This document shows positions 28,356 to 51,099 of a DNA stretch of 64,000 nucleotides, piece after piece. Source of the DNA: Blastocatellia bacterium. GTDB taxonomy: Bacteria; Acidobacteriota; Blastocatellia; RBC074. The translations under genes were made by a program, and so were the position numbers. Below the pieces are notes generated by a model. That model made no database searches. It saw only the letters and a list, made by a program, of their open reading frames with translations, and was not told the DNA's origin. The stretch is from contig DAOLKO010000010.1 in NCBI GenBank assembly GCA_035331565.1, forward strand, positions 15,682 through 79,681. Reading direction: 5' to 3'. Position 1 is the stretch's first letter. Every line of letters starts with the position of its first letter.

Positions 28356-29039
28356 TTAACGAGAAGCCGGCACTCGTAAAAGCTGACGAATGGTTGCGCC
28401 GTTTTGGCCGGGGTGGGCTTCGAGCAAACACGCGGCGAAGCCTGTCAGGTGCGCCACAGCGAAGCTGATGCCGTTCAGATTGCGTTCGGGCGGCACGCCG
28501 GGAATCGGGCGCGCATAGCCTGAAGCCAGAAAACATTGTTTGGCTTCATCCCAGCGATACGCTTCGCGCGGACAATCCCAATCCAGCGACACGCCCAACA
28601 CCGACGGCAAACAGCCGGGCAGAGAATCCGCGCCGTTGATGTCGCGCGCGGCGACGACCGGCAAGTTTTCCGCTTGCGCCAACACGCGCTCGAACTTTTC
28701 CCGATGATTCAAATTCAGCGTCCCCAGGCTCAGGTTGACGAGGTGCATTTGATTCGCCGCGCACCATTCCAGCGCGCGCAAGATCGTTTCAATGTTGGTG
28801 GTCAGCGCGCGGTCAAAGACTTTGACGGCGTAAAGCTCTGCGTCCGGCGCTTTTTCGCGGATGGCTCCGGCGACAGCCGTGCCGTGGCCGATGAAATCCA
28901 GATACTGTTCTTCGGTTCCGCCGGGCGTGATGCGCATGCCGCCGGCCACGCCGCCGACGTGCGGATGAACTGGATTGACGCCACTGTCAATGATGGCGAC
29001 GCGGACGCCGCGCCCGGTCAGTGTTGGAGTTGCAGGCAT
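28356..29039 (-). CDS. qhpE: Small subtilisin-like serine protease, candidate QhpE (leader peptidase for the QHNDH gamma subunit).
   Basis: Catalytic triad contexts IIDSGV (Asp), GHGTAVAG (His) and GISFAVAHLTG (Ser) in only 227 aa. It overlaps the ABC exporter gene by 22 nt. Confidence 0.6.
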   Translation of the reverse strand: MPATPTLTGRGVRVAIIDSGVNPVHPHVGGVAGGMRITPGGTEEQYLDFIGHGTAVAGAIREKAPDAELYAVKVFDRALTTNIETILRALEWCAANQMHLVNLSLGTLNLNHREKFERVLAQAENLPVVAARDINGADSLPGCLPSVLGVSLDWDCPREAYRWDEAKQCFLASGYARPIPGVPPERNLNGISFAVAHLTGFAACLLEAHPGQNGATIRQLLRVPASR

Positions 29040-30703
29040 TCGTGGATTTTTCCGTTTTCCAGCGTCAGCACTTGATCGGCGATGGCGGCCAGCGCCGGAC
29101 GATGCGTGATGATGATTGCCGTGCGACCGCGCAGAGATTGCGACAGCGTCGCAGCCAGGCTTTGTTCGGTTGCAGCGTCGAGCGCGGCGCTCGGTTCGTC
29201 CAGCACCAGCACCGCCGGTTCGCGCAACAACGCGCGCGCAATGGCCAGTCGCTGGCGTTCGCCCACGGACAAAGCCAAACCGCGTTCGCCGACTTGCGTG
29301 TCGTAACCTTCCGGCAAAGCGGCGATGAATGCATCAAGCGCGGCGGCTTGCGCGGCGGCGGCGATTTTTTCGGGCGGCACGTCGGGCAAACCGTAAGCGA
29401 TGTTTTCGGCCAGGCCGGCGTTGAAAAGGATCGGCGTTTGATCCACCAGCAAAACGTGGCGGCGCACATCATCCAACCGCAAGTCGCGCAAATCGTGCCC
29501 GTCCAGTTTGACCGCGCCCGCCTGCGGATCGAACAACCGCACCATCAAATCGGCGATGGTGGATTTGCCAGCGCCGCTGCCGCCTGTGATGGCTGTGATG
29601 CTGCCTGCCGCGATGGTGAAACTTATGTCGTCCAGCACAAGGGCTTCGCGGTCGTGGCGAAAGCTGACGCGGTCGAAACGGATTTCACCGCGCGCTTCGT
29701 TGAGCGGCGCGGCGTGCGGACTTTCAACCACGTCTGGCGGAGTGTCGAGCAATTCAAAGACACGCCGCAACGAAACGCGCGCCGTCGTCAGGTTCGTGTA
29801 CAAACTCATCAGGCTTTGCACGGGCGCAAGCAGCCGCTGGTGATAAGCCATAAACGCCACCAGCGCGCCGATGCTGAGCGATCCTTTGATGACCAGCGCG
29901 CCGCCGTACAAAAACACCAGCGCTGTGGAAAGCGTCAGCATTGTGCCGGGCAGCGCGCCTGCCAAATACGAGGTCAGTTGCATCGCCAGCAAGGCATCAA
30001 TAAAGCCGCGATTGCGCGCGCGAAAACGCGCGACTTCGTGCGATTCGGCACGCGAAGTCACAATCAGCCGCATGCCTTGTAAGGATTCGATCAGAAAGCT
30101 GCCGATGTCCGCGCTGCGTTCGCGCAAGGTTTTGACCTGCCCGGTCAAACGTTGCTGGTAATGCCTGAGCGCCAGTACGCTGGGCGGAACCAGCACGATG
30201 CTGAGCAAAAACAAGCGCCAGTTCAGCCAAAGCATGATGGCGACGCTGCCGACGAAAAAGACCACATTAGCCAACACTGCCAGCAAACTGTCAGCGGCGA
30301 CGCGCTGGATTTCGGCGATGTCGTTGTTCAGGCGCGAAACGATGTCGCCCAGTCTGGTGCGCGCATAAAAGCGCGGCGAGAGCGTTTGCAGATGGCGGTA
30401 GAGCGCCAAGCGCATATCGAACAGCACTTCGGCGGAAACGGAGACGTAGCGGTAGCTGGACAGAATGTTCAGCGCAAATCCGAAGACAGTCACGACAACC
30501 ATCAGCGCGGCAACCTGCCACAGCGCGTTGAGATTGCGCCGCAACAAGGCTTCGTCAATCAGGAGTTTGGTGATGTAAGGCTGCGCCAGTCCGAGCAGCG
30601 TCGAGATCAGGCTGATGAACAAAACCAGCGTCAGCCGTTTCCAGTAAGGCGTGAGGTAAGCGAAAGCGCGGCGGTATTCGTTGAGCGAGGCGGGTTGTTT
30701 CAC
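29018..30703 (-). CDS. qhpF: ABC exporter with fused TMD and NBD, candidate QhpF.
   Basis: Six-TM N-terminal domain. Walker A is GGSGAGKST, signature LSVGERQRLAIARAL, Walker B LVLDEPSAALD. Confidence 0.75.
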   Translation of the reverse strand: MKQPASLNEYRRAFAYLTPYWKRLTLVLFISLISTLLGLAQPYITKLLIDEALLRRNLNALWQVAALMVVVTVFGFALNILSSYRYVSVSAEVLFDMRLALYRHLQTLSPRFYARTRLGDIVSRLNNDIAEIQRVAADSLLAVLANVVFFVGSVAIMLWLNWRLFLLSIVLVPPSVLALRHYQQRLTGQVKTLRERSADIGSFLIESLQGMRLIVTSRAESHEVARFRARNRGFIDALLAMQLTSYLAGALPGTMLTLSTALVFLYGGALVIKGSLSIGALVAFMAYHQRLLAPVQSLMSLYTNLTTARVSLRRVFELLDTPPDVVESPHAAPLNEARGEIRFDRVSFRHDREALVLDDISFTIAAGSITAITGGSGAGKSTIADLMVRLFDPQAGAVKLDGHDLRDLRLDDVRRHVLLVDQTPILFNAGLAENIAYGLPDVPPEKIAAAAQAAALDAFIAALPEGYDTQVGERGLALSVGERQRLAIARALLREPAVLVLDEPSAALDAATEQSLAATLSQSLRGRTAIIITHRPALAAIADQVLTLENGKIHECLQLQH

Positions 30704-30706
30704 AAT

Positions 30707-31717
30707 TCAAGCTTGGACTTTGTAATAGCACATAAACCCCGACGCGCAATGTTCGGGCGATTCGCGCAGGGATTTGGCGCGTTCGATGACGTGTAGCTTC
30801 GGAACGCCGTTGCGCGTGCGTTCGACGATGTCGCGCACCATTCGGACGCTCGCCATTTTCTTGAACGGCGCGGCTTCGCGTCCGACGATTTTCAGCGAAG
30901 CCACGCCGATGCGTTGCAAGTCTGGAATGGCGCACAAACCGCACGGGCCGTAAGGTAAACCTTTGGCCGTTGCGCCGCAGCCGTTGCCATTCAAGTACCA
31001 AACCCATTCGCGGTAATCGGTCAGGTTGCGCCGTAGCCAGTTGTGGCGGCGGCTCGTGAAGGTTTTGCCCGCCCATTCAAACCGCGTGTCCATTTCCGAC
31101 AATCCTGTGCAAAACGCGCCGACCGTGTGGTGATGCGTCGTCGAACAAAAGCCTTCTTCAAACGCGCAGCCGTCGTTGAGCATGAAGACTTCGATTTCAA
31201 CTTCGTCGCGGGTGTCGCGCGTGATGGTTTCGATTTCGGCCAGCGTCAGGCTGCGCGGCAGAATGACGCGCCGAACGCCAAAGTTCAGCAGAAAGCGCAC
31301 GGCTTCAGTGTTGAGCGTGGCGGCAACGGAGCTGACGTGCAGGTCGCAGGCGAGTTTGGCTTCGCTCAGCCGCAACAGCAGATTGATGTCGGTGACGATC
31401 AGTGCATCCACGCCGATTTCTTCAGAGAGTTTACGCGCCAGTTCCATCACCAGCGGCATCTGCTCGGCGGTGTAAAACGGGGAGTTGAGCGTGATGAAAA
31501 CTGGAAGCTTGCAGGAGTGCGCGTCATCCACCAGCCGTTTCAAATCGGCGTAAGTTTCCAGACTGCCGCCTTTGGGACTGCGGCGATTGAGCCAGACCGC
31601 GCCGGTGTATTTTTCCATCCACTCGCGCGGGACAATGCCGCAGAACAACTCTTCCGCGCCGGCGGCGGCCAGCATTTCCAGTTCTTCGTGCGCAGCGATG
31701 GGAGCCAGGATTTTCAT
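30707..31717 (-). CDS. U32-family [4Fe-4S] protein, UbiU/RlhA-like. A candidate O2-independent hydroxylase.
   Basis: MKILAPIAAHEELEMLAAAGAEELFCG N-terminus, U32 signature-like EVFMLNDGCAFEEGFCS, and additional Cys at CTGL and CGLC. It lies 3 nt upstream of qhpF. Confidence 0.65.
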   Translation of the reverse strand: MKILAPIAAHEELEMLAAAGAEELFCGIVPREWMEKYTGAVWLNRRSPKGGSLETYADLKRLVDDAHSCKLPVFITLNSPFYTAEQMPLVMELARKLSEEIGVDALIVTDINLLLRLSEAKLACDLHVSSVAATLNTEAVRFLLNFGVRRVILPRSLTLAEIETITRDTRDEVEIEVFMLNDGCAFEEGFCSTTHHHTVGAFCTGLSEMDTRFEWAGKTFTSRRHNWLRRNLTDYREWVWYLNGNGCGATAKGLPYGPCGLCAIPDLQRIGVASLKIVGREAAPFKKMASVRMVRDIVERTRNGVPKLHVIERAKSLRESPEHCASGFMCYYKVQA

Positions 31718-31725
31718 GGCAGGGG

Positions 31726-32358
31726 TTAGTCGAGAATGCCTGCGAGTTTGAGCGTCAGCCCGTCGAACAACAGTTCGCCGGTGATGGTCTTGGGATGATT
31801 GAGTACTTTGGCGCGCGCGCCGGGACGATAAACGTGAGCTTTCTTTTCCAGCGGATCAATCAGCCAGCCGAGTTGCGCGCCGTTTTCCAGATATTCTTCC
31901 ATCTTCTCTTTGAGCATATCGAGATCATCGCTTTCAGAGCGTAACTCGACGACAAAGTCGGGGCAGATGGGCGCAAATTTCTTGCGCAATTTTTTGGGAA
32001 TGGCTTCCCAACGCTCACGCGCGATCCAGGAAAGGTCGGGCGAGCGTTTCGCGCCATTGGGCAGCGTGAACCCCGTGGCGGAATCAAAGCCGACGCCCGT
32101 TCCGTCCGTTTTGGCCCAAATGCCAAACTCGACGGCGAGATTGAAGTTCCGATTCCCGCCTTCACTGCCCGTCGGCATCATGATTATCATTTGCCCCTCC
32201 TTGGTCATCTCGATCCGCAGTTCATTGTTGTTGGCGCAGAACTCGAAGAATTCATCGTCGGTCACTTTTTTGCGAAGCGGCCCAAGGCGAATAACCATTG
32301 TGTCCAAATCAGGCGGAGCGGAGCGCGGAGTAATTTGCGGCGATAGGCGTGTACTCAT
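31726..32358 (-). CDS. Uma2-family (DUF820) PD-(D/E)xK endonuclease-like protein.
   Basis: 210-aa product. The pattern IEMTKEGQMIIMMPTGSEGGNRNFNLAVEFGIW...PDFVVELRSESDD is typical of Uma2. The real start is ATG 32358; the longer listed ORF overlaps the upstream gene. Confidence 0.6.
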   Translation of the reverse strand: MSTRLSPQITPRSAPPDLDTMVIRLGPLRKKVTDDEFFEFCANNNELRIEMTKEGQMIIMMPTGSEGGNRNFNLAVEFGIWAKTDGTGVGFDSATGFTLPNGAKRSPDLSWIARERWEAIPKKLRKKFAPICPDFVVELRSESDDLDMLKEKMEEYLENGAQLGWLIDPLEKKAHVYRPGARAKVLNHPKTITGELLFDGLTLKLAGILD

Positions 32359-32369
32359 AATTGATCCTC

Positions 32370-33296
32370 TCAGATCGCTATCATCGGCAGGCGTGGTTGA
32401 AAAATCAATCTTGCGATTCGGCCTTGCGCGGCTTGTGCCGGCAATGCGCGCAGCATTGGTTCGCTGTGGTGATAAAAATATGAATTGCCTTTCAGATAAA
32501 ACTTCTGGTCGCGATTGCCGAAGGGAGAATTGGTGTACTGGTATTCCAGCAAATGCGTCTGGCATTCGTGACGGCAAGGCGCGCCGGGCTGGAACTTGTC
32601 TGCTTTGTGGTAGTGCAAGCCCGCCGCCATGCAAACGCGGCTGGTGCTGATAAATCCGAACGGCAGGTAAATAGCGATGGCCAGGCCACCCACGTTCAGA
32701 TCGTTGCCTTGCGGCAGATTGTCCATTTCGATCATTTCGACGCCGAACCGCCTGAGCATCATCGCGTAACTGGCGTTGTCCAGGTTGGAGCCTTGCAGCA
32801 CGTTCAAGGCGGAAGCAGGCGCGGGCGCAGCGGCATACATCGTCGTCACGCGCGGGTCGCGCAAGGATTTGTTCAGCAAACGGCCTTGCACGGGGCGCAG
32901 CGTCGGATAGTCCCGGCGCAATAAATTCAGCACGCCCCAATCGTTGAAGACGACTTCATTGCCGGCCTGCTCAGCCAGCGCATCAAACAGGGGGCGCAAA
33001 GCGGTGATGCCTTCATTGCCGACATAAGGCGTCAATAACGTAAAAGCCAGATTGCGCGATTGTGCAGCGGCGAGCGCCTGCCGGAGCGAAGCGGCTGACG
33101 GCAACAGGTGTTCGCAAAATTCGTTTCCGAAAACGCAACCGTCGAAGAAGACTTCGCCGTGATGTTCCTGAATAACTTTTGCGGCGAGTGCGACCAATGG
33201 TTGGATGATGGCACTGGCTTCAAACGTAGCCAATCGGGCGAGGCTGAGTTCGCCTTGCAAATCGTCAGCGCCTTTGATGTGCAATCGCCATTGCAT
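32370..33296 (-). CDS. Second U32-family protein, UbiV-like (one N-terminal and three C-terminal Cys).
   Basis: VFFDGCVFGNEFC ... NDWGVLNLL ... SRVCMAAGLHYHKADKFQPGAPCRHEC parallels the UbiV 4-Cys cluster arrangement. Confidence 0.5.
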   Translation of the reverse strand: MQWRLHIKGADDLQGELSLARLATFEASAIIQPLVALAAKVIQEHHGEVFFDGCVFGNEFCEHLLPSAASLRQALAAAQSRNLAFTLLTPYVGNEGITALRPLFDALAEQAGNEVVFNDWGVLNLLRRDYPTLRPVQGRLLNKSLRDPRVTTMYAAAPAPASALNVLQGSNLDNASYAMMLRRFGVEMIEMDNLPQGNDLNVGGLAIAIYLPFGFISTSRVCMAAGLHYHKADKFQPGAPCRHECQTHLLEYQYTNSPFGNRDQKFYLKGNSYFYHHSEPMLRALPAQAAQGRIARLIFQPRLPMIAI

Positions 33297-33301
33297 ACTT
33301 G

Positions 33302-34423
33302 TTACTGCCGAGGTTTGACGACCAGCAGGTTCGTCGTCATATCGCCGTCAAAGGTGATGACGCGCTGTTGTTTGAAGGTTTGCGCGTCGTAACATTCGAT
33401 GGTCGGGCCTGCGCCGTGGATGTAAAGCTGTTTCCCGTCGCCGGAGAGCGTGAACGAAAACCGCGAGCGACTTTCAAATTCGTGTTTGTTGACCAGTTTG
33501 CGCGCCGCCAGATCGAACACCCAAAACTCCGTGCGCCGCGTCGCGCCGTTGCCGTTGAAGGCCACGGTGTAGCCGGTCTTGCGATCCGGCGAAAGTTGCA
33601 GGCCGGTCATGCCTGTGGTGGCCGGGCCAATCGGCGTGAAATCCAGCTTGCGCGTATTCAGGTCTAACCGCGCGAGGCCGAAAATGCGCCGCCGCACCAC
33701 CGGGTCAGTCGCGTTGAAGACCGAAGTCACTATGCTGGGGTCTTCGTTGGGATCGCCGCCCGCGCCGATCCGCACAGGGAAAATGCCCGGATGCTGCGGT
33801 TTGGACAGTTCAATCTTGTCTATTTGCTTGAACTCTTTGAGGTCGAAAATCAGCACGTCTTCCTTGAACACGTAAAGCAGCTTGCCGTCGGGTGAAACGC
33901 GGTAGCCGGCCTGAAAGCCGAAGGGCGAATCGTATTCTTTGGGAAAGTCGAAAGTCTTGGTGATTTTCTTTTGCGCCAGATCAATCACGGCGAATTTTGG
34001 TTTTTCGATTTCAAAGCGATCAATCTTTTTCACCGCGGCAGTGATCGTGGCGTATAGGAATTGATCGGTCGGGTCGGGCGCAAACCCATTCATACGGACG
34101 ATGCGTTCGCCTTCGTTGAGCGTGAACGAATTGACGACTTTGCGCGTGGCCAAATCAATCACTTCGATGCCGTTGTTCCAGGTGCTGACGTAGATTTTCT
34201 TTTTGTCGTAAGACAGCGTCAGCCCTTGCGGCGTGCCGGTGTTGAGTTGAATCCGGTCAACGACTTTGCCTTGCGCTTCGTCAATCACCAGCACCGTGCG
34301 CTGCCAAACGCCGGTGTAAAGCATCGCGCCCGCCGCCGCTTTTGTTTGCGCGAATGCAGCGGCAGCCAACAGCAGAATGAAAGCAACAGCCAATGTGAAT
34401 CGCATATCGTTTCCCTCGTTCAT
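33302..34423 (-). CDS. qhpB: QHNDH beta subunit (7-bladed beta-propeller), candidate QhpB.
   Basis: Signal peptide, ~350-aa repeat-rich beta-strand protein. Its position in the operon matches qhpB. Confidence 0.6.
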   Translation of the reverse strand: MNEGNDMRFTLAVAFILLLAAAAFAQTKAAAGAMLYTGVWQRTVLVIDEAQGKVVDRIQLNTGTPQGLTLSYDKKKIYVSTWNNGIEVIDLATRKVVNSFTLNEGERIVRMNGFAPDPTDQFLYATITAAVKKIDRFEIEKPKFAVIDLAQKKITKTFDFPKEYDSPFGFQAGYRVSPDGKLLYVFKEDVLIFDLKEFKQIDKIELSKPQHPGIFPVRIGAGGDPNEDPSIVTSVFNATDPVVRRRIFGLARLDLNTRKLDFTPIGPATTGMTGLQLSPDRKTGYTVAFNGNGATRRTEFWVFDLAARKLVNKHEFESRSRFSFTLSGDGKQLYIHGAGPTIECYDAQTFKQQRVITFDGDMTTNLLVVKPRQ

Positions 34424-34441
34424 TTTGGTTGCCTGACAAGC

Positions 34442-34984
34442 TCAGAAGTCAAAACGATAAGCCACCCAATAATCAGAATGGCTTCGACAAAAATCTCTGA
34501 AATACTCAACGCGCGCTATCATCTCTTTTCTCATCACACGCAAATCATCCGGGTGTTCGTGTATTGATTTGAGCATACAATCCACGTGTTCGGATGTGAG
34601 CAAGAGAAAGTCACATTCCTCTTCCCGGAAATACTTGCCGCAAGAAATAGATCCCGGTGGGTCAACTCCTGAAAACACGTGAGCGTGACATCCCCAGTAA
34701 TCAAGATGGACGGTTTCTTCGCCTAAGCAGAAATCCAACGCTAGCTGTTTTTTGAAATCGTTCAGTTTCGTCTCAGCAAGCAATTCCTCAACCGCTTTCG
34801 TTACGGAAGTCCCATTTTGGCTCATCACAAAGACTAATGAACTATGGAGAGTTGCACTAGCTTGATCCTTAGCTTCCAAGACATCAATGTTGTCTTCTAA
34901 AAAGCGCGTGAGCGTTGGCCGATTCATCTTAAGAATTCGGTCAGAAAGCCGCTTGTCGTAAAGTTGTATCCAGTCAGTTCCCAT
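34442..34984 (-). CDS. Low-GC Cys/His-rich 180-aa protein of unknown function, inserted between qhpC and qhpB.
   Basis: The DNA is conspicuously AT-rich relative to its flanks. Motifs include HLDYWGCHAHVF, CGKYFREEECDF and HVDCMLKSIHEHPDD. Confidence 0.5.
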   Translation of the reverse strand: MGTDWIQLYDKRLSDRILKMNRPTLTRFLEDNIDVLEAKDQASATLHSSLVFVMSQNGTSVTKAVEELLAETKLNDFKKQLALDFCLGEETVHLDYWGCHAHVFSGVDPPGSISCGKYFREEECDFLLLTSEHVDCMLKSIHEHPDDLRVMRKEMIARVEYFRDFCRSHSDYWVAYRFDF

Positions 34985-35000
34985 TTCAATTCAATGGGTT

Positions 35001-35345
35001 TCACGGAAAGACTAGATCAATGTTGCGCCAGTCTTTAGTTGCGCTGGCGCACTTGCTCGTCCAGTCGGGATAGTTGTTCAGATGATCCGGCACTTGCGCG
35101 GGCCAGAAACAACTGATGTAGCAGTCATAAAGATCGCGTTCGACAGGCTGGCACAAACCCGCCGTCCCGCCTGTGGAATCCACTTCCCAGCCGGGCGAAA
35201 AGACCAGCGAACAACCCATTGGATAATGCGGGCGAGTTGGCGCGGGCGGGCCGCCTTGTTGCAGCGCAACGATGTCGCCGAATTCAGCGGCCACGTATTC
35301 TTCAATCCGCACTGCTTTGCGGTTGATTGCCCTGATGTGTTTCAT
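35001..35345 (-). CDS. qhpC: QHNDH gamma-subunit precursor (CTQ- and thioether-bearing small subunit), candidate QhpC.
   Basis: 115-aa product. The leader MKHIRAINRKAVRIEEYVAAEF is followed by a Cys/Asp/Glu/Trp-rich core GCSLVFSPGWEVDSTGGTAGLCQPVERDLYDCYISCFWPAQ. Its ATG overlaps the qhpD stop (ATGA). An AAGGAAA RBS is present. Confidence 0.65.
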   Translation of the reverse strand: MKHIRAINRKAVRIEEYVAAEFGDIVALQQGGPPAPTRPHYPMGCSLVFSPGWEVDSTGGTAGLCQPVERDLYDCYISCFWPAQVPDHLNNYPDWTSKCASATKDWRNIDLVFP

Positions 35346-36772
35346 AGCGTTTTCCTTTCGTCGAAGTGAGCCAAAAATTGCGGATTGCGCGTTGCCAGTT
35401 CGCCATAGACGCGCAAACAAACGTCCGTCCAACCGCGAATCCAATCGCAGTAATGCAAATTTGCCTGCCCCGTGTCGCCGTAGCGCACGAAGGCTTCGTG
35501 GTAACAGCCGCCCGAACAAACAGGCCGCGCCCAACAGGTCAGACATTCGGGTTTGCGGTTGATGTGGCCGCGTTCCAGAAAATCCGCTTGTTGCGCACGG
35601 TCAATGCCGGTTTGGATTGTGCCGAGTTTGTGCGCGTCGGCGTCCACGAACCGATGGCAGGGCGCGATGTCGCCCGAAGGGCTGACGCCCAGCAAGCCCA
35701 AGCCCGCGCCGCACGGATGCGCTTTGCTGATGCCCGCGTGCAATTCGGCCAGCGTGTCGCTGACGTTTGAAAAGCCGTGATGTTCATTGCGCAGCGCGCA
35801 TTCCAGATATTCTTCCGCCAGCGCGGTGAACTGTTCCAGAATGCTGTTTAAGCCGTTTGTGCCGATGGCGTAAAGCCGCACAGGCGAAGTCGTGACCGGC
35901 GCGAAACCGACTTCGTGAAAGCCCAGTTCGTCTTTCAAGTGGCGATAGATTTTCTTCACGTCCACGACTTGCGAAGTCAGCGTGACGCGCGCGGCGATGG
36001 GGCGCGTTCGGTGTTTGGCCAGCAAGGCTTTGATCTTCGGCGCGATCATTTCGTAACTGCCTTGCCCGTTGGAAAACACGCGCAACTGGTCGTTCATTTC
36101 CTGCGGCCCGTCAATGCTGATCGTCACGCCGACGTGTTGTTCGGCCAGATATTCGATCACCGGTTCGGTCAGCAAAGTCGCGTTCGTCGTCAGGCTGAAA
36201 TCAATGTATTTGCCCGCCGCGTGAGCCTGTTGCCGGGCGTAATCAATCGTGGCGCGAACGACTTTGAAGTTCATCAAAGTTTCGCCGCCGAAAAAGGTCA
36301 GATGCACTGCACGACGTCCGGGCGATTGCGCCAACAGGAAGTCCACGGCGGCGAAAGCCGTCGCTTCGTCCATGAACTTCGTCTTGCCTTCGGGCATGGC
36401 CAAGCGATCTTCGCCGAATTCGTAGCAGTACTTGCACGAAAGATTGCATTGATTGGTAACGTTGAGTACCAGCGTTTGCAGCGGGAAAGGCATCGGCGCG
36501 GGCTGCACTTCGTCGGCGTAACCGTGGCCGTTGGTGAGGGCGCGCGACTGATACAACTCGGCGACGGTTTCTTCGGCTTCGACGTAATTGAAGCCTTGCG
36601 TGGTTAGATCGGCGACCAAATCCAGGCGTTCGCGTTCGCCCGCGCGCAAGGTTTGGATGACGGCGGACGAAAGTTCATCGAGCGCGAAAATCGCGCCGCT
36701 CGGCACCAGGTAAAGATAGTCTTGCCCGCCGCCGCTGAACTCGTGAAATTCGCCGAGCCGCAATGTCGTCAT
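35342..36772 (-). CDS. qhpD: Radical SAM/SPASM peptide maturase, candidate QhpD (thioether-forming).
   Basis: CNLSCKYC CxxxCxxC motif, C-terminal SPASM cysteines CHRF...CLTCWARPVCSGGCYHE. The start is taken at ATG 36772 (MTTLRLGEF), just after the qhpA stop. Confidence 0.75.
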   Translation of the reverse strand: MTTLRLGEFHEFSGGGQDYLYLVPSGAIFALDELSSAVIQTLRAGERERLDLVADLTTQGFNYVEAEETVAELYQSRALTNGHGYADEVQPAPMPFPLQTLVLNVTNQCNLSCKYCYEFGEDRLAMPEGKTKFMDEATAFAAVDFLLAQSPGRRAVHLTFFGGETLMNFKVVRATIDYARQQAHAAGKYIDFSLTTNATLLTEPVIEYLAEQHVGVTISIDGPQEMNDQLRVFSNGQGSYEMIAPKIKALLAKHRTRPIAARVTLTSQVVDVKKIYRHLKDELGFHEVGFAPVTTSPVRLYAIGTNGLNSILEQFTALAEEYLECALRNEHHGFSNVSDTLAELHAGISKAHPCGAGLGLLGVSPSGDIAPCHRFVDADAHKLGTIQTGIDRAQQADFLERGHINRKPECLTCWARPVCSGGCYHEAFVRYGDTGQANLHYCDWIRGWTDVCLRVYGELATRNPQFLAHFDERKTL

Positions 36773-38550
36773 CGCGCTACCTCCGGTTGATCCCATTTCA
36801 TATAAAGCGGAACTGTGACGACTAAGTAAGACCGCGCCGTTAATGGCTTGGCGTCTTTATCCTGCTGCCTGGTGTCCTGCTGTTTAATGGTCGCCACGAT
36901 CCACAGGTCGCCGTAGTTGTTGCGCGAATGTTTCCGCTGCGGATTGGGGCCTTCAATCGCCGGCGTGAACAATCCCGTCGCGCTCAGCTTGCCGGAATAG
37001 TCTTTGTCGTCGTCGTCGTAAATCGCGGGAAATTCTTCGACCGTCCATTCAGCGTCCATCGCGCCGAGCGGCAAATCGTCAGCCGTTTGCGGTTTGTTGT
37101 CGGGGCCGCGGAAATAGCCTATGGCCTCGAACTGCCAATAGCCTTTGGGGTATTTCACGCCGCCCAACCGCGCCAGGGCGTTATCAGGATTCACTTTGAT
37201 GTAATCCACTTTGTCGTAAATCGTCACCGCGCCGGGCACGAAGGCGCGCCGAACAGCCAAGTCGCGTTTGCCGAGCGGCGCTTTTTCTTCAATGTCCACG
37301 GCGACGGTGAGCGCATCGCGCCCAACGTTGACGATGCGCGTGACTTTGACGCCGGGGCCGAAATCAATGTCTTCGGGTTTCAAGTCCGACGGGAAGTTCG
37401 CGCCGAAGATTTTCACCTGTTCATTGGCGGCGGGCGCTTTGAGCGCGAAACGATCCAAGCCCAGTGCAATCGTTCCGGTGTCAACGCGCCGCAGCGTGAG
37501 ATCAATGCCGAACTCTTCGTAATCGCCCCAGAACCAGCGACCGTCCATTTGCGACTGGTCGCGCGAAACCAGCATGACTTCGCGCATTTCGCGCGGATCG
37601 TCGCCGGGATCGCCGTTGCCGTTTTCGCGCGCGCCGCCTTGCGAACGCCCGCGCCAACTGTAGCCGGTGTAAACCAAACTGCGCCCTGTGCGCGTGAAGG
37701 TCTTGCCGCTTTTGACGAAAGTCAGTTGCGTGCGCGTCGTGAATTCGTCTTCTGCCGCGCCGGGTTCAATCGTCATTTCGCCGTAAACGCGACCTTTGCC
37801 GACTTGATAGCCGCTGACCAGCCAACGCCCGGCAAGTTTGGGCGTGCGCGAATTCGCCCGCCACGCAGCCCATTCCGGCGTGTGCAGCGGAAAGGTTTTG
37901 GCCAAAAACTCCACGGCGCGATCCGCTGGATGGCGCGTGTCTGTTCCCGGCGGCGGAGGTGGCGCATCAGGCGGCGGCGGGAAGCGGCGGAAGCCTTGAA
38001 ATTCGACGACGGGGAAATAGCCAACGTGCATGTTGACCAGCAAATCCCACTCTTCTTTCGAGCGGCGCTGCGACTGCACGCGTCCGTAGGTGTGGCAGAT
38101 CGTGCAGGTGTTACGCAGGTTTTCATCGGGAACGGTTTCGTCAAGCACGCGATGCTCGACTTCATAAAACGCAGGCCGCGCTTCTTCCGGTGCCAAGCCG
38201 TGGTTCGCACTCAGGTAACGGACAATCTGACGCGCTTCCTCCGGCGACAACGTCAGACCGTTCAAGCGAACCATGCGTTTGATGATTTGTTGCCAGCCTT
38301 CGGGTGTAGTGCGCTCCCACGAAATGCGCGTCAGATTGCCTTTGTCATCGGCCTTGTGACAGGTCGAACATTTGGCAATGACAAGTTGGTTGGTGACGGG
38401 AATGCCCTCCTCACCGGGCGGTTTGGCGGGCGGCGCGGCTTGTGGCGTTTGTGCCGGCTGCGTTTGTGATTGTTGAGTTTGGGAATAAACCGTGAAACCT
38501 ACGGGCAGCAGCAACGTGCCCATCAAGACGAACAGCTTGAGCAAGCGCAT
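36769..38550 (-). CDS. qhpA: QHNDH alpha subunit (dihaem cytochrome c N-domain plus beta-sandwich domains), candidate QhpA.
   Basis: Signal peptide and two CxxCH motifs (CSTCH, CTICH) in the first ~170 aa, followed by a ~400-aa beta-rich region. Confidence 0.7.
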   Translation of the reverse strand: MRLLKLFVLMGTLLLPVGFTVYSQTQQSQTQPAQTPQAAPPAKPPGEEGIPVTNQLVIAKCSTCHKADDKGNLTRISWERTTPEGWQQIIKRMVRLNGLTLSPEEARQIVRYLSANHGLAPEEARPAFYEVEHRVLDETVPDENLRNTCTICHTYGRVQSQRRSKEEWDLLVNMHVGYFPVVEFQGFRRFPPPPDAPPPPPGTDTRHPADRAVEFLAKTFPLHTPEWAAWRANSRTPKLAGRWLVSGYQVGKGRVYGEMTIEPGAAEDEFTTRTQLTFVKSGKTFTRTGRSLVYTGYSWRGRSQGGARENGNGDPGDDPREMREVMLVSRDQSQMDGRWFWGDYEEFGIDLTLRRVDTGTIALGLDRFALKAPAANEQVKIFGANFPSDLKPEDIDFGPGVKVTRIVNVGRDALTVAVDIEEKAPLGKRDLAVRRAFVPGAVTIYDKVDYIKVNPDNALARLGGVKYPKGYWQFEAIGYFRGPDNKPQTADDLPLGAMDAEWTVEEFPAIYDDDDKDYSGKLSATGLFTPAIEGPNPQRKHSRNNYGDLWIVATIKQQDTRQQDKDAKPLTARSYLVVTVPLYMKWDQPEVAR

Positions 38551-38726: not shown

Positions 38727-38770
38727 AATGGGCTTGGCTGGACTCGAACCAGCGGCCTACTGCTTAGGAG
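38727..38770. repeat. attL-like 44-nt direct repeat, identical to the 3' half of tRNA-Arg at 51024-51067.
   Basis: aatgggcttggctggactcgaaccagcggcctactgcttaggag is present at both sites. The sequences diverge immediately afterwards. Confidence 0.8.
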
Positions 38771-38937
38771 TCTAATGCCGCCCATTTTCCTGACCTGTCT
38801 GAACATTTCTTACCTCTTCAAAAGCCTGTAAATACTGCATTTTTCTTGCCTGCATTATTCACTATCTCTCCCGACTTGTCATCTGATTGTGTTACGATGT
38901 GTGTCACAAGACAGATTAAACTTTCGGGAGAAGCATC

Positions 38938-40068
38938 ATGCCAAGACAACGGACTGGTTACGTTTGGTACTGGAAAGAACGCAAATCCTGGTATGCCCGC
39001 CTGACCTTCACGGATGCCAGCGGCAAACGGCGCAATGTCTGCCGCTCCGTCGAAAACAAAACCGAAGGCAACAAACTGCTCAAACAATTGATCCGGGATT
39101 TGGAAGATAACGGCGAGAAAGCGTTGGATTCCGAAAAGCTGACCTTTCGCCAACTCGCCAAGCTTTACTCCGACCGCAAACTTATCGCCGCTGAATATCA
39201 AGGTGACACGAAAGTGCGCGGATTGCGCTCGCATAAAAACCAGCAAGGGTATCTGAAAACACTGGTTGACCATTTCGGCGGGCTGCGCGTGCGCGCCATC
39301 ACGCACAGCGACCTGGAAGATTACCGAGCCAAACGATTGCAAACCATAACCCGACGAGGCGCGCAACTCAGCGCGGCCAGCGTCAACCGGGAATTAAGCC
39401 TGATGCGCGCGGTTTTGAATTTTGCCCGGCGACAAGGCTGGCTCAGCCGAAATCCTTTTGATGCGGGCGATCCGGTTATCAAACCCGCCGACGAAGTGAA
39501 GCGCGAGCGCGTGTTGACGTTTGAAGAAGAAGGGCGGTTGTTACTGGCTTGCGCTGCACCGCGCGAACATTTGCGCCCGATGCTGATTTTCGCGCTTGAT
39601 ACCGGCTTGCGGAAATCCGAAATGCTGGCTTTGCGCTGGGCCGACGTTGACCTTGAATCCGGGATGATTCGCGCGCGTAGCTCGACCACCAAGACGCGCA
39701 AAGCCCGAACTATAGGTATGACTTCGCGCCTGAAAGCCGAGCTTGAGCGAATGCGAGAGTCGGCGGGCGATGATCCTGAATCGCGCATCTTCAACCAGAA
39801 AGACATGAAGCGCTCCTTTGCGACGGCTTGCGAACTGGCCGGTGTTGAAAACCTGCACTGGCACGACCTGCGCCACACCGCGACAACGCGAATGGTTGAA
39901 GTCGGCCTTGCGCCGATGATTGTCATGAAGCTGACCGGCCATACTCAGATGGCAACCTTTGCCCGCTACGTCAACGCCAACGATGAAGCGGCGACCAAAG
40001 GCGCGGAAGCTCTCGACGCTTACCGGCAAAACGCTCTCGGCGAAAGCACGCCGGAGAGAATCAACTGA
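38938..40068 (+). CDS. int: Tyrosine-type site-specific integrase.
   Basis: C-terminal HDLRHTATTRMVEVG...ATFARYVN carries the R-H-R-Y catalytic signature. It is adjacent to the att repeat. Confidence 0.85.
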   Translation: MPRQRTGYVWYWKERKSWYARLTFTDASGKRRNVCRSVENKTEGNKLLKQLIRDLEDNGEKALDSEKLTFRQLAKLYSDRKLIAAEYQGDTKVRGLRSHKNQQGYLKTLVDHFGGLRVRAITHSDLEDYRAKRLQTITRRGAQLSAASVNRELSLMRAVLNFARRQGWLSRNPFDAGDPVIKPADEVKRERVLTFEEEGRLLLACAAPREHLRPMLIFALDTGLRKSEMLALRWADVDLESGMIRARSSTTKTRKARTIGMTSRLKAELERMRESAGDDPESRIFNQKDMKRSFATACELAGVENLHWHDLRHTATTRMVEVGLAPMIVMKLTGHTQMATFARYVNANDEAATKGAEALDAYRQNALGESTPERIN

Positions 40069-40175
40069 AACGGCTTCGGCTCGCCTTACGCCTGATTAGC
40101 TACCCGGCGGACAGCGGTGAAACCTTCGCTCCGTTGGAGAGCCGAAAACACGAAGGACACCTGGAAGGGGAGACA

Positions 40176-41450
40176 ATGCAAAATGAGCAAGAGTTTCGTC
40201 AGATCATAGAAAGGATTGATGAAGTGACGCGGGCGCTTTTGCAAGTAAGGGATTACAAGGCGGAGGCGATTGACCTTAATGGTGCAGACGCTCCTTTGAA
40301 ACTTCTAGCGCGAACTTGGCGGGACACTCAGTTACCAAGTCAGTCTGATGAAAAGCTCGCCAATATGATACGGCAGCGGTTAGAGGAAACATTATCTCCA
40401 ATCTTGTGGATTGCTACGGGACAAATAGTTTCTGGTGCGCTCGAATACGCTACGCGCGAAACTGGGGCAACCGTAATGCCCACCTTTGATGGACTTTCAA
40501 GGGTGGGCATAGCTGAGCAACCATATTCCGAAGATGAAGAAGAGGTTTGGTTGATTGGTTTAGCGGAGAGAATACGAATAAAAGGAACGCTTCAGGTGAG
40601 CCTAAATTGGGGAGAGATTGAATCTATTCTTGATGATTTTTTTGGCTCGTCTCTTTCAGCGTGTAAAACTGAGCAAGAAGCAAAAACGGCTTGGAATAGC
40701 TTTCTCAAGAAGGAGCAAAAGCACCTCAAAAAAAGAATGGGGGATTCACCGGTAGAAAAAATCGTAGAGACCAACCGGAAGGTTGAAATGCTGACGGATA
40801 AACAAAGAGAGCAGATGCGAAGCGATCTGGTAAAACTCGCTTCGCAAAACTTCAAATTAAACATAGATCACGTTATTCGTTGTGCTATTGCGGCCAATCT
40901 GTTCTTGAGCCTGGTGTATTGGGAATACGCTTTTGATCGTGAAAAAGGAAGAGCCGAGAAGGAAGTTCAGCAATCACTGCCCGGAGTAGAAGAACTAAGA
41001 GACATAATAGGTAAGAGATTGAATGACTGGCTTATTCAACCGCTTCCAAAAAGACCGCGCCTAGGTAAACAAGCAAAAGCTGATTTAAGCCAACTGCGCC
41101 AGTTTTACGAGGAAGTTATTGGGGATTGGCGTGATGCCTTTAGCTTCTGTCGTGAGGCTCTCAATTCTCGTTCAGCAACCCGCCGTGCAACTTGGAAAGA
41201 AGACCTCAAAAAATACTATCCCAGTCTGCGAGATTACGACGATTTGATTGAGCGGCTACAGCCCATAGAGAACTGGCCAGAGCAGGTAGCTGCGAAATGT
41301 TCAGAGCAGGGGGGCGAGGATAAGCCTGAAGACATCGCTTACGAACATGCTGCACGACTATGCGACGCAGCCAATTACACGTACAAGCTGTCTTCGCTTA
41401 TTGAGGAATACCGCAAGCAAGGGCGACAAAAAAAAGAAGAAAAAGAATGA
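40176..41450 (+). CDS. Island-encoded hypothetical protein (~425 aa, acidic, AT-richer).
   Basis: ORF with a GGAGA RBS before ATG 40176. No recognisable domain. Confidence 0.45.
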   Translation: MQNEQEFRQIIERIDEVTRALLQVRDYKAEAIDLNGADAPLKLLARTWRDTQLPSQSDEKLANMIRQRLEETLSPILWIATGQIVSGALEYATRETGATVMPTFDGLSRVGIAEQPYSEDEEEVWLIGLAERIRIKGTLQVSLNWGEIESILDDFFGSSLSACKTEQEAKTAWNSFLKKEQKHLKKRMGDSPVEKIVETNRKVEMLTDKQREQMRSDLVKLASQNFKLNIDHVIRCAIAANLFLSLVYWEYAFDREKGRAEKEVQQSLPGVEELRDIIGKRLNDWLIQPLPKRPRLGKQAKADLSQLRQFYEEVIGDWRDAFSFCREALNSRSATRRATWKEDLKKYYPSLRDYDDLIERLQPIENWPEQVAAKCSEQGGEDKPEDIAYEHAARLCDAANYTYKLSSLIEEYRKQGRQKKEEKE

Positions 41451-41665
41451 AAATTTTGCACTCGACCAACACCACACAATTTAGAAAAAAAAGAATTGAG
41501 ACTTCTGAAAAGCTTATCAGTTTGGCCTAAATTGCAGGTTGAGGTAACTCAAGACGATCTGACAAAACAGTGGGCAAGAGCCGTTCGATTTCTGAGGCCG
41601 CGCGGCACTTGCCCTTGACCTAAACCCGCCGCTTTTGGCGGCAAAGCACAGGAGTTTTTTAAATT

Positions 41666-41896
41666 ATGTCCCAAGTGTCTTTTGAAGCCAACACCAGCCC
41701 AAAACAACCAATCCTCGAAACCGCTGTCTACGGGCGCGACGAGGCAATCGCTATCACCGGCTTTTCGCTCTCGACGCTGATCCGCGCCGAAGAGAAAGGA
41801 AAGCTGCGAGGTCGCTACGAAGGCCGTCGCCGATTTTATTTCGGGCGCGATCTGCTGCGCTGGCTGGGAGCCTGCGAGGAAGGAGGTGCGGAGTGA
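41666..41896 (+). CDS. AlpA/excisionase-like small HTH DNA-binding protein.
   Basis: 76-aa product. DEAIAITGFSLSTLIRAEEKGKL is an HTH resembling phage AlpA/Xis. Confidence 0.55.
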   Translation: MSQVSFEANTSPKQPILETAVYGRDEAIAITGFSLSTLIRAEEKGKLRGRYEGRRRFYFGRDLLRWLGACEEGGAE

Positions 41897-42195
41897 AGTC
41901 AAAAAACCAAAAGCCGCCAGCGGCGGGAATCGCTGACGGCTCTCGAAATCGAACTAAAAATTACGAGCCGGATTCTGCCACGCTGCGCCGACAAACGGCA
42001 ACAACAAATTTGCCGGAGTGCCCGTGTCCCGTATGCGCGCGCAGTTATCGTTACGCATGGGGCTGGTTGATGGTGCTGCCGACGGCGCGAGTCGTTGACC
42101 TGTGCGCGTATTGCACGCGCACTTTGCGCTACGGCTCAGCGTCGGAGCGTCAGGCAATTGCCGACGCGATTGCAACGCGGGAGGTGGCACTATGA
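41893..42195 (+). CDS. Small Cys-rich protein (putative zinc-ribbon).
   Basis: CPCPVC...CAYCTR is a four-Cys arrangement. Its stop overlaps the primase ATG (ATGA). Confidence 0.35.
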   Translation: MKSKNQKPPAAGIADGSRNRTKNYEPDSATLRRQTATTNLPECPCPVCARSYRYAWGWLMVLPTARVVDLCAYCTRTLRYGSASERQAIADAIATREVAL

Positions 42196-44801
42196 ACAGG
42201 CTTGATTACGCGAAAGACTATCAAGGCAGGGGCTACACGCCTCTGCCGCTTCCACTCAAGGCGAAGAATCCAGGTTTTCATGATTGGCAGAAATACCAGC
42301 CGGTTAATGGCCGGCTTGAGCGTGATTTCAGCAACGAAGGCAACATCGGGTTGCTACTCGGCAAACCGTCGGGCTGGCTGATTGACGTGGATTTGGATTG
42401 GCCGGAATCGCAAAGGCTCGCGTCTGCTTTCCTGCCTGAAACGACAGCCAAAAGCGGGCGTGAATCCGCGCCGCTGTCGCATTACTGGTATCACTGCGAA
42501 ACCGGAACGAAGAAGTTCAGCGATCCGACCAAGCCGGGCGGCGACGACCAGCGCGCGATGATTGTCGAGCTTCGGTCAACGGGATTGCAGACGGTTGTCG
42601 AGCCAAGCATTCATCCGTCTGGCGAGCGGTACGTCTGGCAAGGCGAATTGATGCCCGCGCAAATTGACGCTGCAACGCTTCAACGCGCGGTTGCGCGGTT
42701 GGCGGCGTGTGCGCTTGTCGCTCGACATTGGCCGCAAGGCCGCCGACACGATGCGGCGCTGGCGTTGGCCGGTGCGCTGTTTCGCAACGCCTGGGCGCGC
42801 GCCGATGTCGAGCGGTTCATACTGTCGGCGGCTGGTGTGGCGGGCGATGAAGAAATCGAAGACCGCAAACGCGCCATTGCCGACACGGAAGAAAAGCTCC
42901 GCAGAGGCGAACACGTGACCGGCTTGCCAACCTTGTCGGAGTTCATCGGCGAAAAGACCGTCGGCGCGCTGGTCAAATGGTTAGGGCTGACAGCCCAGCC
43001 GGAAAAGCCTGCCGAAGCGATAAGCAATCAATCACGCGAGCCGGTTGCCTGCCCTTACAAAGCCAACGGCATCGGCCTGGTGTGGCTGAAGCCCGTCGCC
43101 ACAAGAGACGGCGCGGCGGAGCCGCTTGCCGTTCAGCTTACCAACTTCATCGCCGAAATCACTGGCGAAGTGTGCCGCGATGATGGTGCGGAGCAAACGC
43201 GGGTTTATGAGATTACGGCGCAGCTTGCGGGCGAAACCGCTTCGCACAAAGGCGCAGTCGTTGCCGAAGAGTTCGGCCTTTTGAAATGGCCCGCCACGAT
43301 TTTGGGCGCAAGGGCTGTCATCTATCCGAGCAAAAAAGAGCATACCGGCGTAGCGATTCAACTCTTGTCGCGCAAGATCGAAAGCCGTCGTGTCGTGGCT
43401 CATACAGGCTGGCGCAACGATGGCAACGGCTGGCGTTATTACCACGCGGCGGGCGCAATCGGCGCGGAAGGACTGATTGACGCCGAAGTTGAGTTGCCGA
43501 CTGCGCTGGCGGCTTATTCATTGCCTGCGCCGCCAGTGGGCGAAACGCTGAAGGATACAGTATCGGCAGTCATTGGGCTGGCCGGTGTGGGGCCGGATGA
43601 TGTGACGCTGCCCACGTTGGGCGCAGTTTGGGCAAGCGTGCTGACGGGCGCGGATTTTTCTATTTATCTAGCCGGGCGCACAGGCAGCGGGAAAAGTATT
43701 TTGACGGCGCTCTTTCTGTCCTTGTTCGGCTCCGGCTTTGACTTCAACGCGCTGCCCGCGTCGTGGTCTTCAACCGGCAACAGCCTGGAATCGTTGGCGC
43801 ACGCGGCAAAAGATTGCGTGTTAGCCGTTGACGATTTTTGTCCGCAAGGTTCGGCGGCAGACCAAGCGCGATTGCAGGCAGCGGCGGATAGAATCTTCCG
43901 CGCACAAGGCAACCATTCCGGGCGATTGCGTTGCCGGACAGACGGAACGGTCAGAGCGGTCAAACCGCCGCGCGGTCTGATTCTCTCGACCGGCGAAGAT
44001 ATTCCGCACGGCCAGAGCCTGCGCGCTCGCACGCTCATCCGCGAAGTCGTCAGGGAGTCGTTGGACTGGCCAGCCATCACAGAGGCGCAAGCAATCGCTC
44101 GGCAAGGCGTTTACGCGCAAGCAATGGCCGCTTTTCTGCAATGGCTGGCGACTGGCGACCGAATCGAAAAGCTTCGAGCATCTGCGCCGGATGATGTTTC
44201 GCGCTGGCGCGAAGAATGGACAACGCGCGGTCTGAATGGTCACAAGCGCAATGCGTCAACGCTGGCTCAATTGGCGCGCGCCTGGCATTGCTGGCTCGGT
44301 TTTGCCTGTGAAGCCGGAGCCATCACGCCCGAAGAGAGCAAGAAGCTCTGGCGGCGCGTGTGGGCTGCGCTGGATGCGGCGGGCAAAGGGCAGGAGCAAT
44401 ATCAGGCGAGCGAGAATCCGGCTTCCCGCTTCATTGAATTGATTCAAGCTGCGCTGGCCAGCGGCAAGGCTCATCTGGCGGCGACAGACGGCGGTAAGCC
44501 GGATTCTGCCGATGCGCAAGCTTTTGGCTGGCGCGATGGCGAACCGCAAGGGGAACGAATCGGATGGCTTGACGGCGACGACCTGTATTTGCAACCGGAT
44601 GCGGCCTATTTATTGGCTCGGCGAATGGCGACAGATGGCGAAGGGCTGACCGTGTCGAGCCAAACGCTGTGGAAACGACTCAACGAAGCCGGGTTGCTGG
44701 CTTCGACTGATACGGCGCGAAAGACCAATAAAGTCCGCAAAACAATCGCCGGAAAATCTAATCCGGTGATTCATCTGCGGTCGGAAATTTTCGCCGGGTA
44801 G
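42192..44801 (+). CDS. Replication protein: N-terminal bifunctional primase-polymerase-like domain plus a central P-loop NTPase (D5/DUF3987-like).
   Basis: Start at ATG 42192 after GGAGGTGG. The N-terminus YTPLPLPLKAKNPGFHDWQKY...GLLLGKPSGWLIDVDLD is Prim-Pol-like. Walker A is AGRTGSGKS and Walker B LAVDDF. Confidence 0.65.
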   Translation: MNRLDYAKDYQGRGYTPLPLPLKAKNPGFHDWQKYQPVNGRLERDFSNEGNIGLLLGKPSGWLIDVDLDWPESQRLASAFLPETTAKSGRESAPLSHYWYHCETGTKKFSDPTKPGGDDQRAMIVELRSTGLQTVVEPSIHPSGERYVWQGELMPAQIDAATLQRAVARLAACALVARHWPQGRRHDAALALAGALFRNAWARADVERFILSAAGVAGDEEIEDRKRAIADTEEKLRRGEHVTGLPTLSEFIGEKTVGALVKWLGLTAQPEKPAEAISNQSREPVACPYKANGIGLVWLKPVATRDGAAEPLAVQLTNFIAEITGEVCRDDGAEQTRVYEITAQLAGETASHKGAVVAEEFGLLKWPATILGARAVIYPSKKEHTGVAIQLLSRKIESRRVVAHTGWRNDGNGWRYYHAAGAIGAEGLIDAEVELPTALAAYSLPAPPVGETLKDTVSAVIGLAGVGPDDVTLPTLGAVWASVLTGADFSIYLAGRTGSGKSILTALFLSLFGSGFDFNALPASWSSTGNSLESLAHAAKDCVLAVDDFCPQGSAADQARLQAAADRIFRAQGNHSGRLRCRTDGTVRAVKPPRGLILSTGEDIPHGQSLRARTLIREVVRESLDWPAITEAQAIARQGVYAQAMAAFLQWLATGDRIEKLRASAPDDVSRWREEWTTRGLNGHKRNASTLAQLARAWHCWLGFACEAGAITPEESKKLWRRVWAALDAAGKGQEQYQASENPASRFIELIQAALASGKAHLAATDGGKPDSADAQAFGWRDGEPQGERIGWLDGDDLYLQPDAAYLLARRMATDGEGLTVSSQTLWKRLNEAGLLASTDTARKTNKVRKTIAGKSNPVIHLRSEIFAG

Positions 44802-44805
44802 GGGT

Positions 44806-45065: not shown

Positions 45066-45082
45066 AATAGGGAGCGGGCAAA

Positions 45083-45993: not shown

Positions 45994-46100
45994 CGAATCG
46001 CCGGGCACGACCAGCCCCGCCAAACTGTAGAATTTTTCTTGCCTCAGCCCGCGATGCGGCATAGACTCCGCGCGTCATCAAACGATGCTCCCCCCGCGTC

Positions 46101-47027: not shown

Positions 47028-47030
47028 AAC

Positions 47031-51025: not shown

Positions 51026-51099
<74 letters not shown>

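Follow-up and report, generated by a model that had tools for sequence, protein, structure and literature searches.

How might the cysteine tryptophylquinone (CTQ) cofactor of quinohemoprotein amine dehydrogenase (QHNDH) be made from an operon in which the gene for the hydroxylase of its precursor tryptophan is not to be found? The question is raised by a 64,000-nucleotide stretch of contig DAOLKO010000010.1 (assembly GCA_035331565.1, positions 15,682 to 79,681), hereafter the window, which belongs to the metagenome-assembled genome (MAG) of a soil member of the Blastocatellia (Acidobacteriota). Contigs identical to the window are also present in three further Blastocatellia MAGs (GCA_035333365.1, GCA_035330305.1 and GCA_035333725.1). 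A preliminary description of this DNA, made from the letters alone, had reported ten co-directional, tightly packed genes for a complete QHNDH system in what appeared to be an acidobacterial host. The source of the contig bears out the host, and all ten genes are present as minus-strand open reading frames (ORFs) between positions 28356 and 38550, in the order given there (A-D-C-x-B-U32-Uma2-U32-F-E) and with intergenic spacings of -28 to +38 nt. Their identification as a QHNDH system, with alpha, beta, and gamma subunits, a radical S-adenosylmethionine (SAM) maturase, an ABC exporter and a small subtilisin-type protease, is likewise upheld by matches to Pfam and other hidden Markov models (HMMs). 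Judged by its sequence, this looks like a functional QHNDH operon, qhpA-D-C-(x)-B-V-(Uma2)-U-F-E, where V and U denote the two genes that had been listed as U32 (ORF6 and ORF8, respectively).

The claim of completeness, however, does not survive. The genes qhpABCDEFGR are all necessary for QHNDH, and QhpG, a flavin adenine dinucleotide (FAD) monooxygenase needed for CTQ, puts two O2-derived oxygen atoms into the CTQ-precursor tryptophan of crosslinked QhpC (PMC7876137). QhpG was omitted from the preliminary description, and qhpG is missing from the 64-kb window. An HMM built iteratively from 34 QhpG sequences and run without filters on all six-frame ORFs of the window gave a best E value of 0.2, while true QhpGs score 160-400 bits; a tblastn search of the window with the Paracoccus QhpG yielded no match; and no FAD-monooxygenase Pfam domain was detected in the large window ORFs scanned, the operon genes included. 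The lack of a nearby AraC-type regulator QhpR, which had been remarked upon earlier, also stands, as tblastn with the Paracoccus QhpR was negative and the flanking ORFs carry no AraC or HTH_18 domain. It is true that the three structural subunits, QhpD, QhpE and QhpF all appear to be present, as would be expected of a complete canonical operon that is notable only for its host and gene order. Yet this description leaves a necessary protein unaccounted for, and the host is no distinction: qhp occurs in more than 1300 species (PMC7876137), and a genome scan returned at least 574 QhpD relatives, the best 80 of which are all from Acidobacteriota, so that the system is common, rather than unusual, in the acidobacterial lineage. 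A canonical operon in an unexpected host is therefore scarcely credible as an account of this locus.

What the window does contain, and the canonical operon does not, are the two U32-type genes. Because QhpG is required but absent, and because V-U is conserved in qhp operons and is never accompanied by QhpG in the loci examined, we consider that there is slightly better than an even chance that V-U stands in for the flavin monooxygenase and acts as an O2-independent peptidyl-tryptophan hydroxylase. The chances appear evenly balanced for the more specific proposal that V-U dihydroxylates a peptidyl tryptophan independently of O2, as a U32 Fe-S heterodimer by which the CTQ precursor on QhpC would be made with oxygen from an organic donor (prephenate). 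We infer the action of V-U on QhpC, its reaction, its oxygen donor and the loss of qhpG genome-wide from comparative genomics, for which the simplest reading is a non-orthologous displacement, whereby a portable U32 Fe-S pair took over the QhpG step.

The preliminary description had listed V and U as two U32 genes, though it missed their significance, and the assignment holds fully for U alone. U is a member of PF01136 (E 4.7e-34), whereas V matches no Pfam or NCBIfam model and is a probable remote U32 relative. NCBIfam has no specific model for either protein. The best NCBIfam match of U is UbiU, at 89 bits and below the cutoff of that model, while the TrhP model gives only 59 bits against a cutoff of 534. 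Comparison of the U family with E. coli UbiU by hhalign returned a probability of 98.4% (E 5e-15, 269 columns), and in this alignment C184 and C191 of U fall exactly on the UbiU Fe-S ligands C169 and C176 (ligands from PMC6747719), with C203 within one column of UbiU C193. The third and fourth ligands of U are ambiguous, and could be either C203/C247 or C259/C262. Nine cysteines are invariant in the U alignment, and conservation of C203 and C247 is confined to the branch linked to qhp. U has 771 homologues, of which the top 120 are at least 67% identical and the named ones are all from Acidobacteriota. By these profile comparisons, U is UbiU-like. It may be added that the U subfamily that partners V has conserved cysteines at C26, C259-x2-C262, C324 and C330, all of which are missing in E. 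coli UbiU; these extra cysteines suggest an additional metal site.

The relationship of V to the superfamily is more distant. Only one of 43 V relatives has a match to PF01136, and that a faint one; the close relatives number about 400 and are "hypothetical proteins", every named one being from Acidobacteria. Nevertheless, four cysteines of V (C61, C222, C241 and C245) recur in 136-137 of 137 diverse relatives, and the motif that they form, CX160CX18CX3C, resembles that of UbiV, CXnCX12CX3C, in which the first cysteine also lies far upstream (PMC6747719), so that these residues are possible 4Fe-4S ligands at the sequence level. Shallow profiles of V gave no significant match to U or UbiV, and neither the V nor the U profile found a match in a sequence search of the PDB. 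With deep profiles of 225 V and 55 U sequences, hhalign aligned V with U over the beta3-alpha3-beta4 region at 90.4% probability (E 1.4e-6). An AlphaFold model of V (predicted template-modelling score 0.80) has as its best Foldseek match 5d88, the only solved U32 structure, with an E value of 4e-6 among 350,542 chains and a runner-up at 2e-4. Together, the deep profiles and the predicted structure identify V as a probable U32 relative that current domain libraries miss. A full profile search places V in a family of ~1,660 clusters at 50% identity (1,116 with E<=1e-10) for which there is no Pfam model; one of its members, P0387 (481 aa), is apparently fused to a SAM methyltransferase domain.

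The two genes also occur together outside qhp. A metagenome scan with a distant V subgroup, 27-35% identical to ORF6, gave 80 loci, of which 26 had no adjacent U32 gene; 19 of these 26 lie on contigs too short to tell, leaving 61 informative loci. A U32 gene directly adjoins the V-family gene, in either order, in 54 of the 61, and none of the 80 loci contains qhpA, B, C or D. In the genomes of other organisms, V either abuts U or overlaps it, the V stop and U start sharing 4 nt in L007, L009 and L011. By gene order, V and U behave as a pair, as UbiU and UbiV do. The non-qhp pairs were found in sediment or anaerobe-type metagenome contigs, and they have a heterogeneous set of anaerobe-type neighbours (FAD-oxidase/CCG, HGD-D/BcrAD, POR, ETF and radical SAM); a single common pathway around them was rejected on account of this heterogeneity.

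The same module in many non-qhp contexts, with varied neighbours, is what would be expected if V-U were an unrelated passenger, such as a quinone or RNA hydroxylase that came to lie in the operon by chance, and two other genes, x180 and Uma2, have also been inserted there. The qhp operons themselves, however, argue otherwise. V-U is found in them over V identities of 38-100%, in Blastocatellia, Bryobacteraceae, Terriglobales, Solibacteraceae and Limnocylindrales (Chloroflexota), and thus in several acidobacterial classes and a Chloroflexota-assigned lineage, and the pair keeps its place throughout, usually between qhpB and qhpF. Those U homologues that are 67-76% identical are encoded in A-D-C-B-V-U(-F-E) operons. 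Distant V proteins (38-48% identity) are in qhp operons as well, namely in L178 (A-D-C-B-V-U-F-E), whose cluster includes a protein annotated from a Limnocylindrales MAG; in L177 (D-C-V-U-F, 841-4582), where V-U directly follows qhpC with no qhpB between; and in L180 (C-B-V-U). Furthermore, the start and stop codons of the pair overlap those of its neighbours, and the qhp-linked pair branches off separately, with conserved cysteines of its own, whereas passengers of the x180 type are confined to one species. We regard a chance association as very improbable. A U32-type qhp operon was also seen in L019 (CAYXVZ010000001.1), which is labelled as an uncultured Heliobacteriaceae; because the operon is of this type and its QhpD is 76% identical to the Blastocatellia protein, the bin is probably misassigned.

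If V-U does stand in for QhpG, the two might be expected to occur in different operons. Among the 80 acidobacterial qhp loci, taken at species level, 7 have V and U, 31 have a QhpG-like gene and 42 have neither within reach, and in none of the 80 do V-U and QhpG occur together. In a tree of QhpD, V-U operons fall in at least three or four clades, none of which holds a clear QhpG locus. The loci with neither include compact A-D-C-B-F-E operons (L054, L060 and L064), and two sets of structural genes are present in L076, L078 and L084.

For comparison, two loci with a QhpG-type gene were taken from a collection of annotated plasmids and chromids. In Novosphingobium RL4 (L014), the operon runs A-D-C-B-g-F-E, in which g, a short and divergent QhpG-like flavoprotein, occupies the position that V-U holds in the window; the QhpD of this strain is 57% identical to that of the window, compared with ~38% for Paracoccus. 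The g gene (NZ_CP141945.1, 14994-15989; 331 aa) scores 60 bits on NF049967, for which the cutoff is 240, and would probably escape standard annotation. Its 1.8-Mb replicon is nearly unannotated in PLSDB. In plasmid p1 of Paracoccus sp. TOH (L015) the order is G-A-D-C-B-E-F-R, and QhpG reaches 405 bits on NF049967, with an E value of 1.5e-40 to PDB 7CTQ.

The proposed substrate of V-U has the residues that the modification would require. QhpC scores 135 bits on NF037958 (cutoff 50), so that the small ORF does resemble QhpC gamma subunits, as had been proposed, although the precursor is 114 and not 115 residues long. Behind a leader of ~38-42 residues, it aligns without gaps with 1JMX_G and 1JJU_C at an offset of +38, and relative to these two structures the thioether pairs C45/E54, C65/D71 and C79/D87 are all conserved, as is the CTQ pair C75/W81. 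QhpC thus possesses every residue of the crosslinks and of CTQ. A fifth cysteine (C97, in the motif ..SKCASATKDW..) was also observed in the mature gamma subunit of all acidobacterial QhpC proteins and of Novosphingobium. It is absent from the Paracoccus and Pseudomonas gamma subunits, and its presence is independent of the type of hydroxylase.

A plausible sequence of events would begin with the synthesis of QhpC in the cytoplasm and the installation of its three thioether crosslinks by QhpD, as is established for the system. The V-U heterodimer, with a 4Fe-4S cluster in each subunit as in UbiU-UbiV, would then, without O2, hydroxylate two ring positions of Trp81, with prephenate as the probable source of oxygen, as has been proposed for U32 enzymes. 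QhpE would cut off the leader and QhpF would export QhpC, after which CTQ formation and assembly with Sec-exported QhpA and QhpB would be completed in the periplasm. Neither V nor U has a signal peptide, and both would therefore be located in the cytoplasm, which is where QhpD and QhpG act.

It might instead be supposed that V-U matures QHNDH at some other step, for example in the last oxidation that yields the quinone, in the Cys75-Trp81 crosslink, in a modification that involves Cys97 or as a protease or chaperone, and that something else hydroxylates the tryptophan. Such a role would suit the tight and stable embedding of V-U in the operon, the nominal standing of U32 as a peptidase family, the fifth cysteine of acidobacterial QhpC, and the branch-specific C203 and C247 of the qhp-linked U proteins. 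The fifth cysteine, however, is also present in QhpG-type operons and so does not track V-U, and QhpE already serves as the leader peptidase. Moreover, among the known essential functions only that of QhpG is missing, and all characterised U32 members are tied to ring hydroxylation (PMC10990095). A role at another step is therefore improbable, though less so than a chance association.

Several considerations weigh against the replacement of QhpG by V-U. The mutual exclusivity of the two is modest, with a one-sided Fisher P of about 0.02-0.03 in which kinship is ignored, and no QhpC residue was found that tracks the type of hydroxylase: mature QhpC hardly differs among U32-type, QhpG-type and "neither" operons, and the F/Y-W at the CTQ site is a general feature of the phylum. 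On the side of the enzyme, V has no significant sequence similarity to UbiV, the deep-profile alignment that links V to U32 spans only 66 columns, and in this genome the Uma2 insertion breaks the V-U junction. Blastocatellia and Bryobacteraceae are generally held to be aerobes, so that the need for an O2-independent route is not obvious. Additionally, a protein is not known to be the substrate of any U32 enzyme, and for all U32 proteins a demonstration in vitro of direct hydroxylase activity is lacking (PMC10990095). Finally, qhpG may lie outside the window. The 42 of 80 loci with no nearby hydroxylase gene imply that this gene can sit elsewhere in the genome, and the present organism could still have qhpG; a close relative, L021, has a weak QhpG-like fragment at a contig edge.

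This last point lends itself to a further interpretation, namely that V-U performs the same tryptophan hydroxylation only as an O2-independent backup, while a canonical, unlinked qhpG works with O2. With over half of the acidobacterial qhp loci devoid of a nearby hydroxylase, an unlinked qhpG is plausible, and dual aerobic and anaerobic routes are known for UbiUV and for TrhP/TrhO (PMC6747719, PMC10990095), E. coli itself keeping both UbiI/H/F and UbiU/V. Conversely, QhpG was found within 8-10 kb in none of the ~17 V-U-type loci examined, as opposed to 31 of 73 loci without V-U, and the clades that contain V-U have no clear QhpG loci. We hold a backup role to be unlikely, if a more serious contender than action at another step.

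The resemblance of the operon and of V-U to known systems is close in some respects and not in others. The canonical operon, qhpADCBEFGR of Paracoccus denitrificans and Pseudomonas putida (compared here by way of Paracoccus sp. TOH p1), has the same alpha and gamma subunits, the same QhpC residues and the same QhpD, and probably also the same beta subunit, QhpE and QhpF. The window differs from it in lacking QhpG and QhpR, in the reversed order of F and E, and in its proteins: QhpB is very divergent, and the QhpC leader is ~10 residues longer. UbiU-UbiV (E. coli YhbU/YhbV), an O2-independent, prephenate-dependent hydroxylase heterodimer that serves in making ubiquinone, is likewise encoded by two adjacent genes, of ~300 and 335 aa. 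V-U, in contrast, lies in the operon of a protein cofactor and not with ubi genes, has no UbiT/SCP2 partner, and would presumably act on a peptidyl tryptophan in place of a prenylated phenol. QhpG (PDB 7CTQ; NF049967), the role of which V-U is proposed to fill, has an unrelated fold and is a single FAD monooxygenase using O2, whereas V-U is predicted to be a two-subunit Fe-S enzyme of TIM-barrel type. TrhP and RlhA, which are required for the O2-independent hydroxylation of tRNA U34 and rRNA C2501, share with the proposed enzyme the superfamily, the cysteine clusters and a function on aromatic rings, but are single-gene enzymes that modify RNA.

The genes of the operon are collected in Table 1.

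Table 1. Genes of the qhp operon in the window (positions are those of the window).
Gene	Product	Position	Strand	Match
qhpA	dihaem alpha subunit, N-terminal signal peptide	36769..38550	-	TIGR03908, Pfam, PDB 1JMX_A
qhpD	radical-SAM/SPASM maturase for QhpC Cys-Asp/Glu thioethers	35342..36796	-	TIGR03906
qhpC	gamma-subunit precursor, 114 aa	35001..35345	-	NF037958
x180	lineage-specific inserted ORF, 180 aa	34442..34984	-	no family match
qhpB	divergent beta-propeller subunit, signal peptide	33302..34423	-	TIGR03907 (below cutoff); 1JMX_B/1JJU_B, full-length
V (ORF6)	UbiV-like partner, probable remote U32-superfamily relative, CX160CX18CX3C motif	32370..33296	-	
Uma2	Uma2-family insertion between V and U	31726..32358	-	PF05685
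U (ORF8)	UbiU-like U32 Fe-S protein	30707..31717	-	PF01136
qhpF-like	ABC exporter, fused half transporter (transmembrane and nucleotide-binding domains)	29018..30703	-	ABC_membrane + ABC_tran
qhpE	small subtilisin-like leader peptidase	28356..29039	-	NF049966, Peptidase_S8

The haem-binding motifs CSTCH and CTICH are present in the 593-residue QhpA, and the similarity of this protein to known alpha subunits extends well beyond them, with 513 bits on TIGR03908 (cutoff 274), the Pfam domains Dehyd-heme_bind and Qn_am_d_aII/III/IV, and an E value of 3e-66 to 1JMX_A. QhpD, a protein of 484 residues with the motif CNLSCKYC, scores 591 bits on TIGR03906 (cutoff 453), and its gene shares 28 nt with qhpA and 4 nt with qhpC. 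The assignment of QhpB, which reaches only 74 bits on TIGR03907 (E 1e-20; cutoff 223), is accompanied by full-length matches to 1JMX_B (E 1e-4) and 1JJU_B (E 5e-4) and by a position of the gene that is the same in all related operons. QhpE, with a Peptidase_S8 domain, falls just under the cutoff of NF049966 (158.7 bits against 165), and its gene overlaps qhpF by 22 nt. The exporter has only generic NCBIfam matches of the MsbA/HlyB type and is 28.5% identical to the Paracoccus QhpF region; in related operons the qhpF-like gene is kept after U, and qhpE is also kept. Scans for promoters and terminators gave counts at or below chance level and were not used.

The preliminary description had counted both x and Uma2 among the parts of the system, but neither appears to belong to it. 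The protein x180 has no match in Pfam, NCBIfam or PHROG, its gene has a GC content of 0.446 compared with 0.55-0.61 for the operon, and it occurs only in contigs of the same species, being absent from all other qhp loci examined. As it is species-specific and foreign in composition, it was rejected as a QHNDH component. A terminator-like hairpin is located at its 3' end (34484-34459). A 178-residue ORF in L011 similarly matched no family. The Uma2 gene is confirmed as such by PF05685 (E 4.5e-41; gene call of 210 aa, from the identical contig), and splits two genes that normally overlap. This putative endonuclease gene was inserted precisely where V and U meet, and only Blastocatellia STL-ACI6 (L017) has the same insertion. 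Both x180 and Uma2 are insertions and not components of the system.

Directly upstream of qhpA lies an integrative island of ~12.3 kb (38727-51099), inserted into tRNA-Arg(CCT). At least 30 nt of the 3' half of the tRNA are repeated exactly at 38727 and 51024, the intact tRNA occupying 51026-51099, and the island encodes a tyrosine integrase (38938-40068), a Prim-Pol/DUF927 protein (42102-44801) and several ORFs with no Pfam or PHROG match. Horizontal arrival of the qhp operon on this island was rejected, because the att repeats set its boundary at 38727, outside the operon.

A full-text literature search returned no paper that joins U32 with QHNDH, QhpD, tryptophylquinone or the hydroxylation of ribosomal peptides with post-translational modifications (RiPPs). 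The novelty would lie in the combination of a known enzyme system with a maturation enzyme of unrelated mechanism, and in a presumed new class of substrate for a U32 module. To our knowledge, every characterised route to tryptophan tryptophylquinone or CTQ needs O2 or H2O2 for its hydroxylation steps. If the proposal is correct, that of V-U would be the first oxygen-independent route to a tryptophylquinone, in which CTQ is made without O2, and in QhpC the U32 family would have its first protein substrate. The known substrates of this family are lipid quinones and RNA only, most of its subfamilies are uncharacterised, and it has no in vitro assay (PMC10990095). The qhp-linked V-U would provide a tractable system in which to study U32 enzymes, as its substrate would be a small, soluble, ribosomally made peptide whose product could easily be detected by a shift in mass. 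The annotation of genomes would gain as well, in that a large V family with no Pfam model emerges as regularly paired with a U32 subfamily, for the most part in genomes of anaerobe type. For the organisms themselves, the replacement of QhpG by V-U would mean that the biogenesis of an amine dehydrogenase is possible under anoxia in Acidobacteriota and Chloroflexota.

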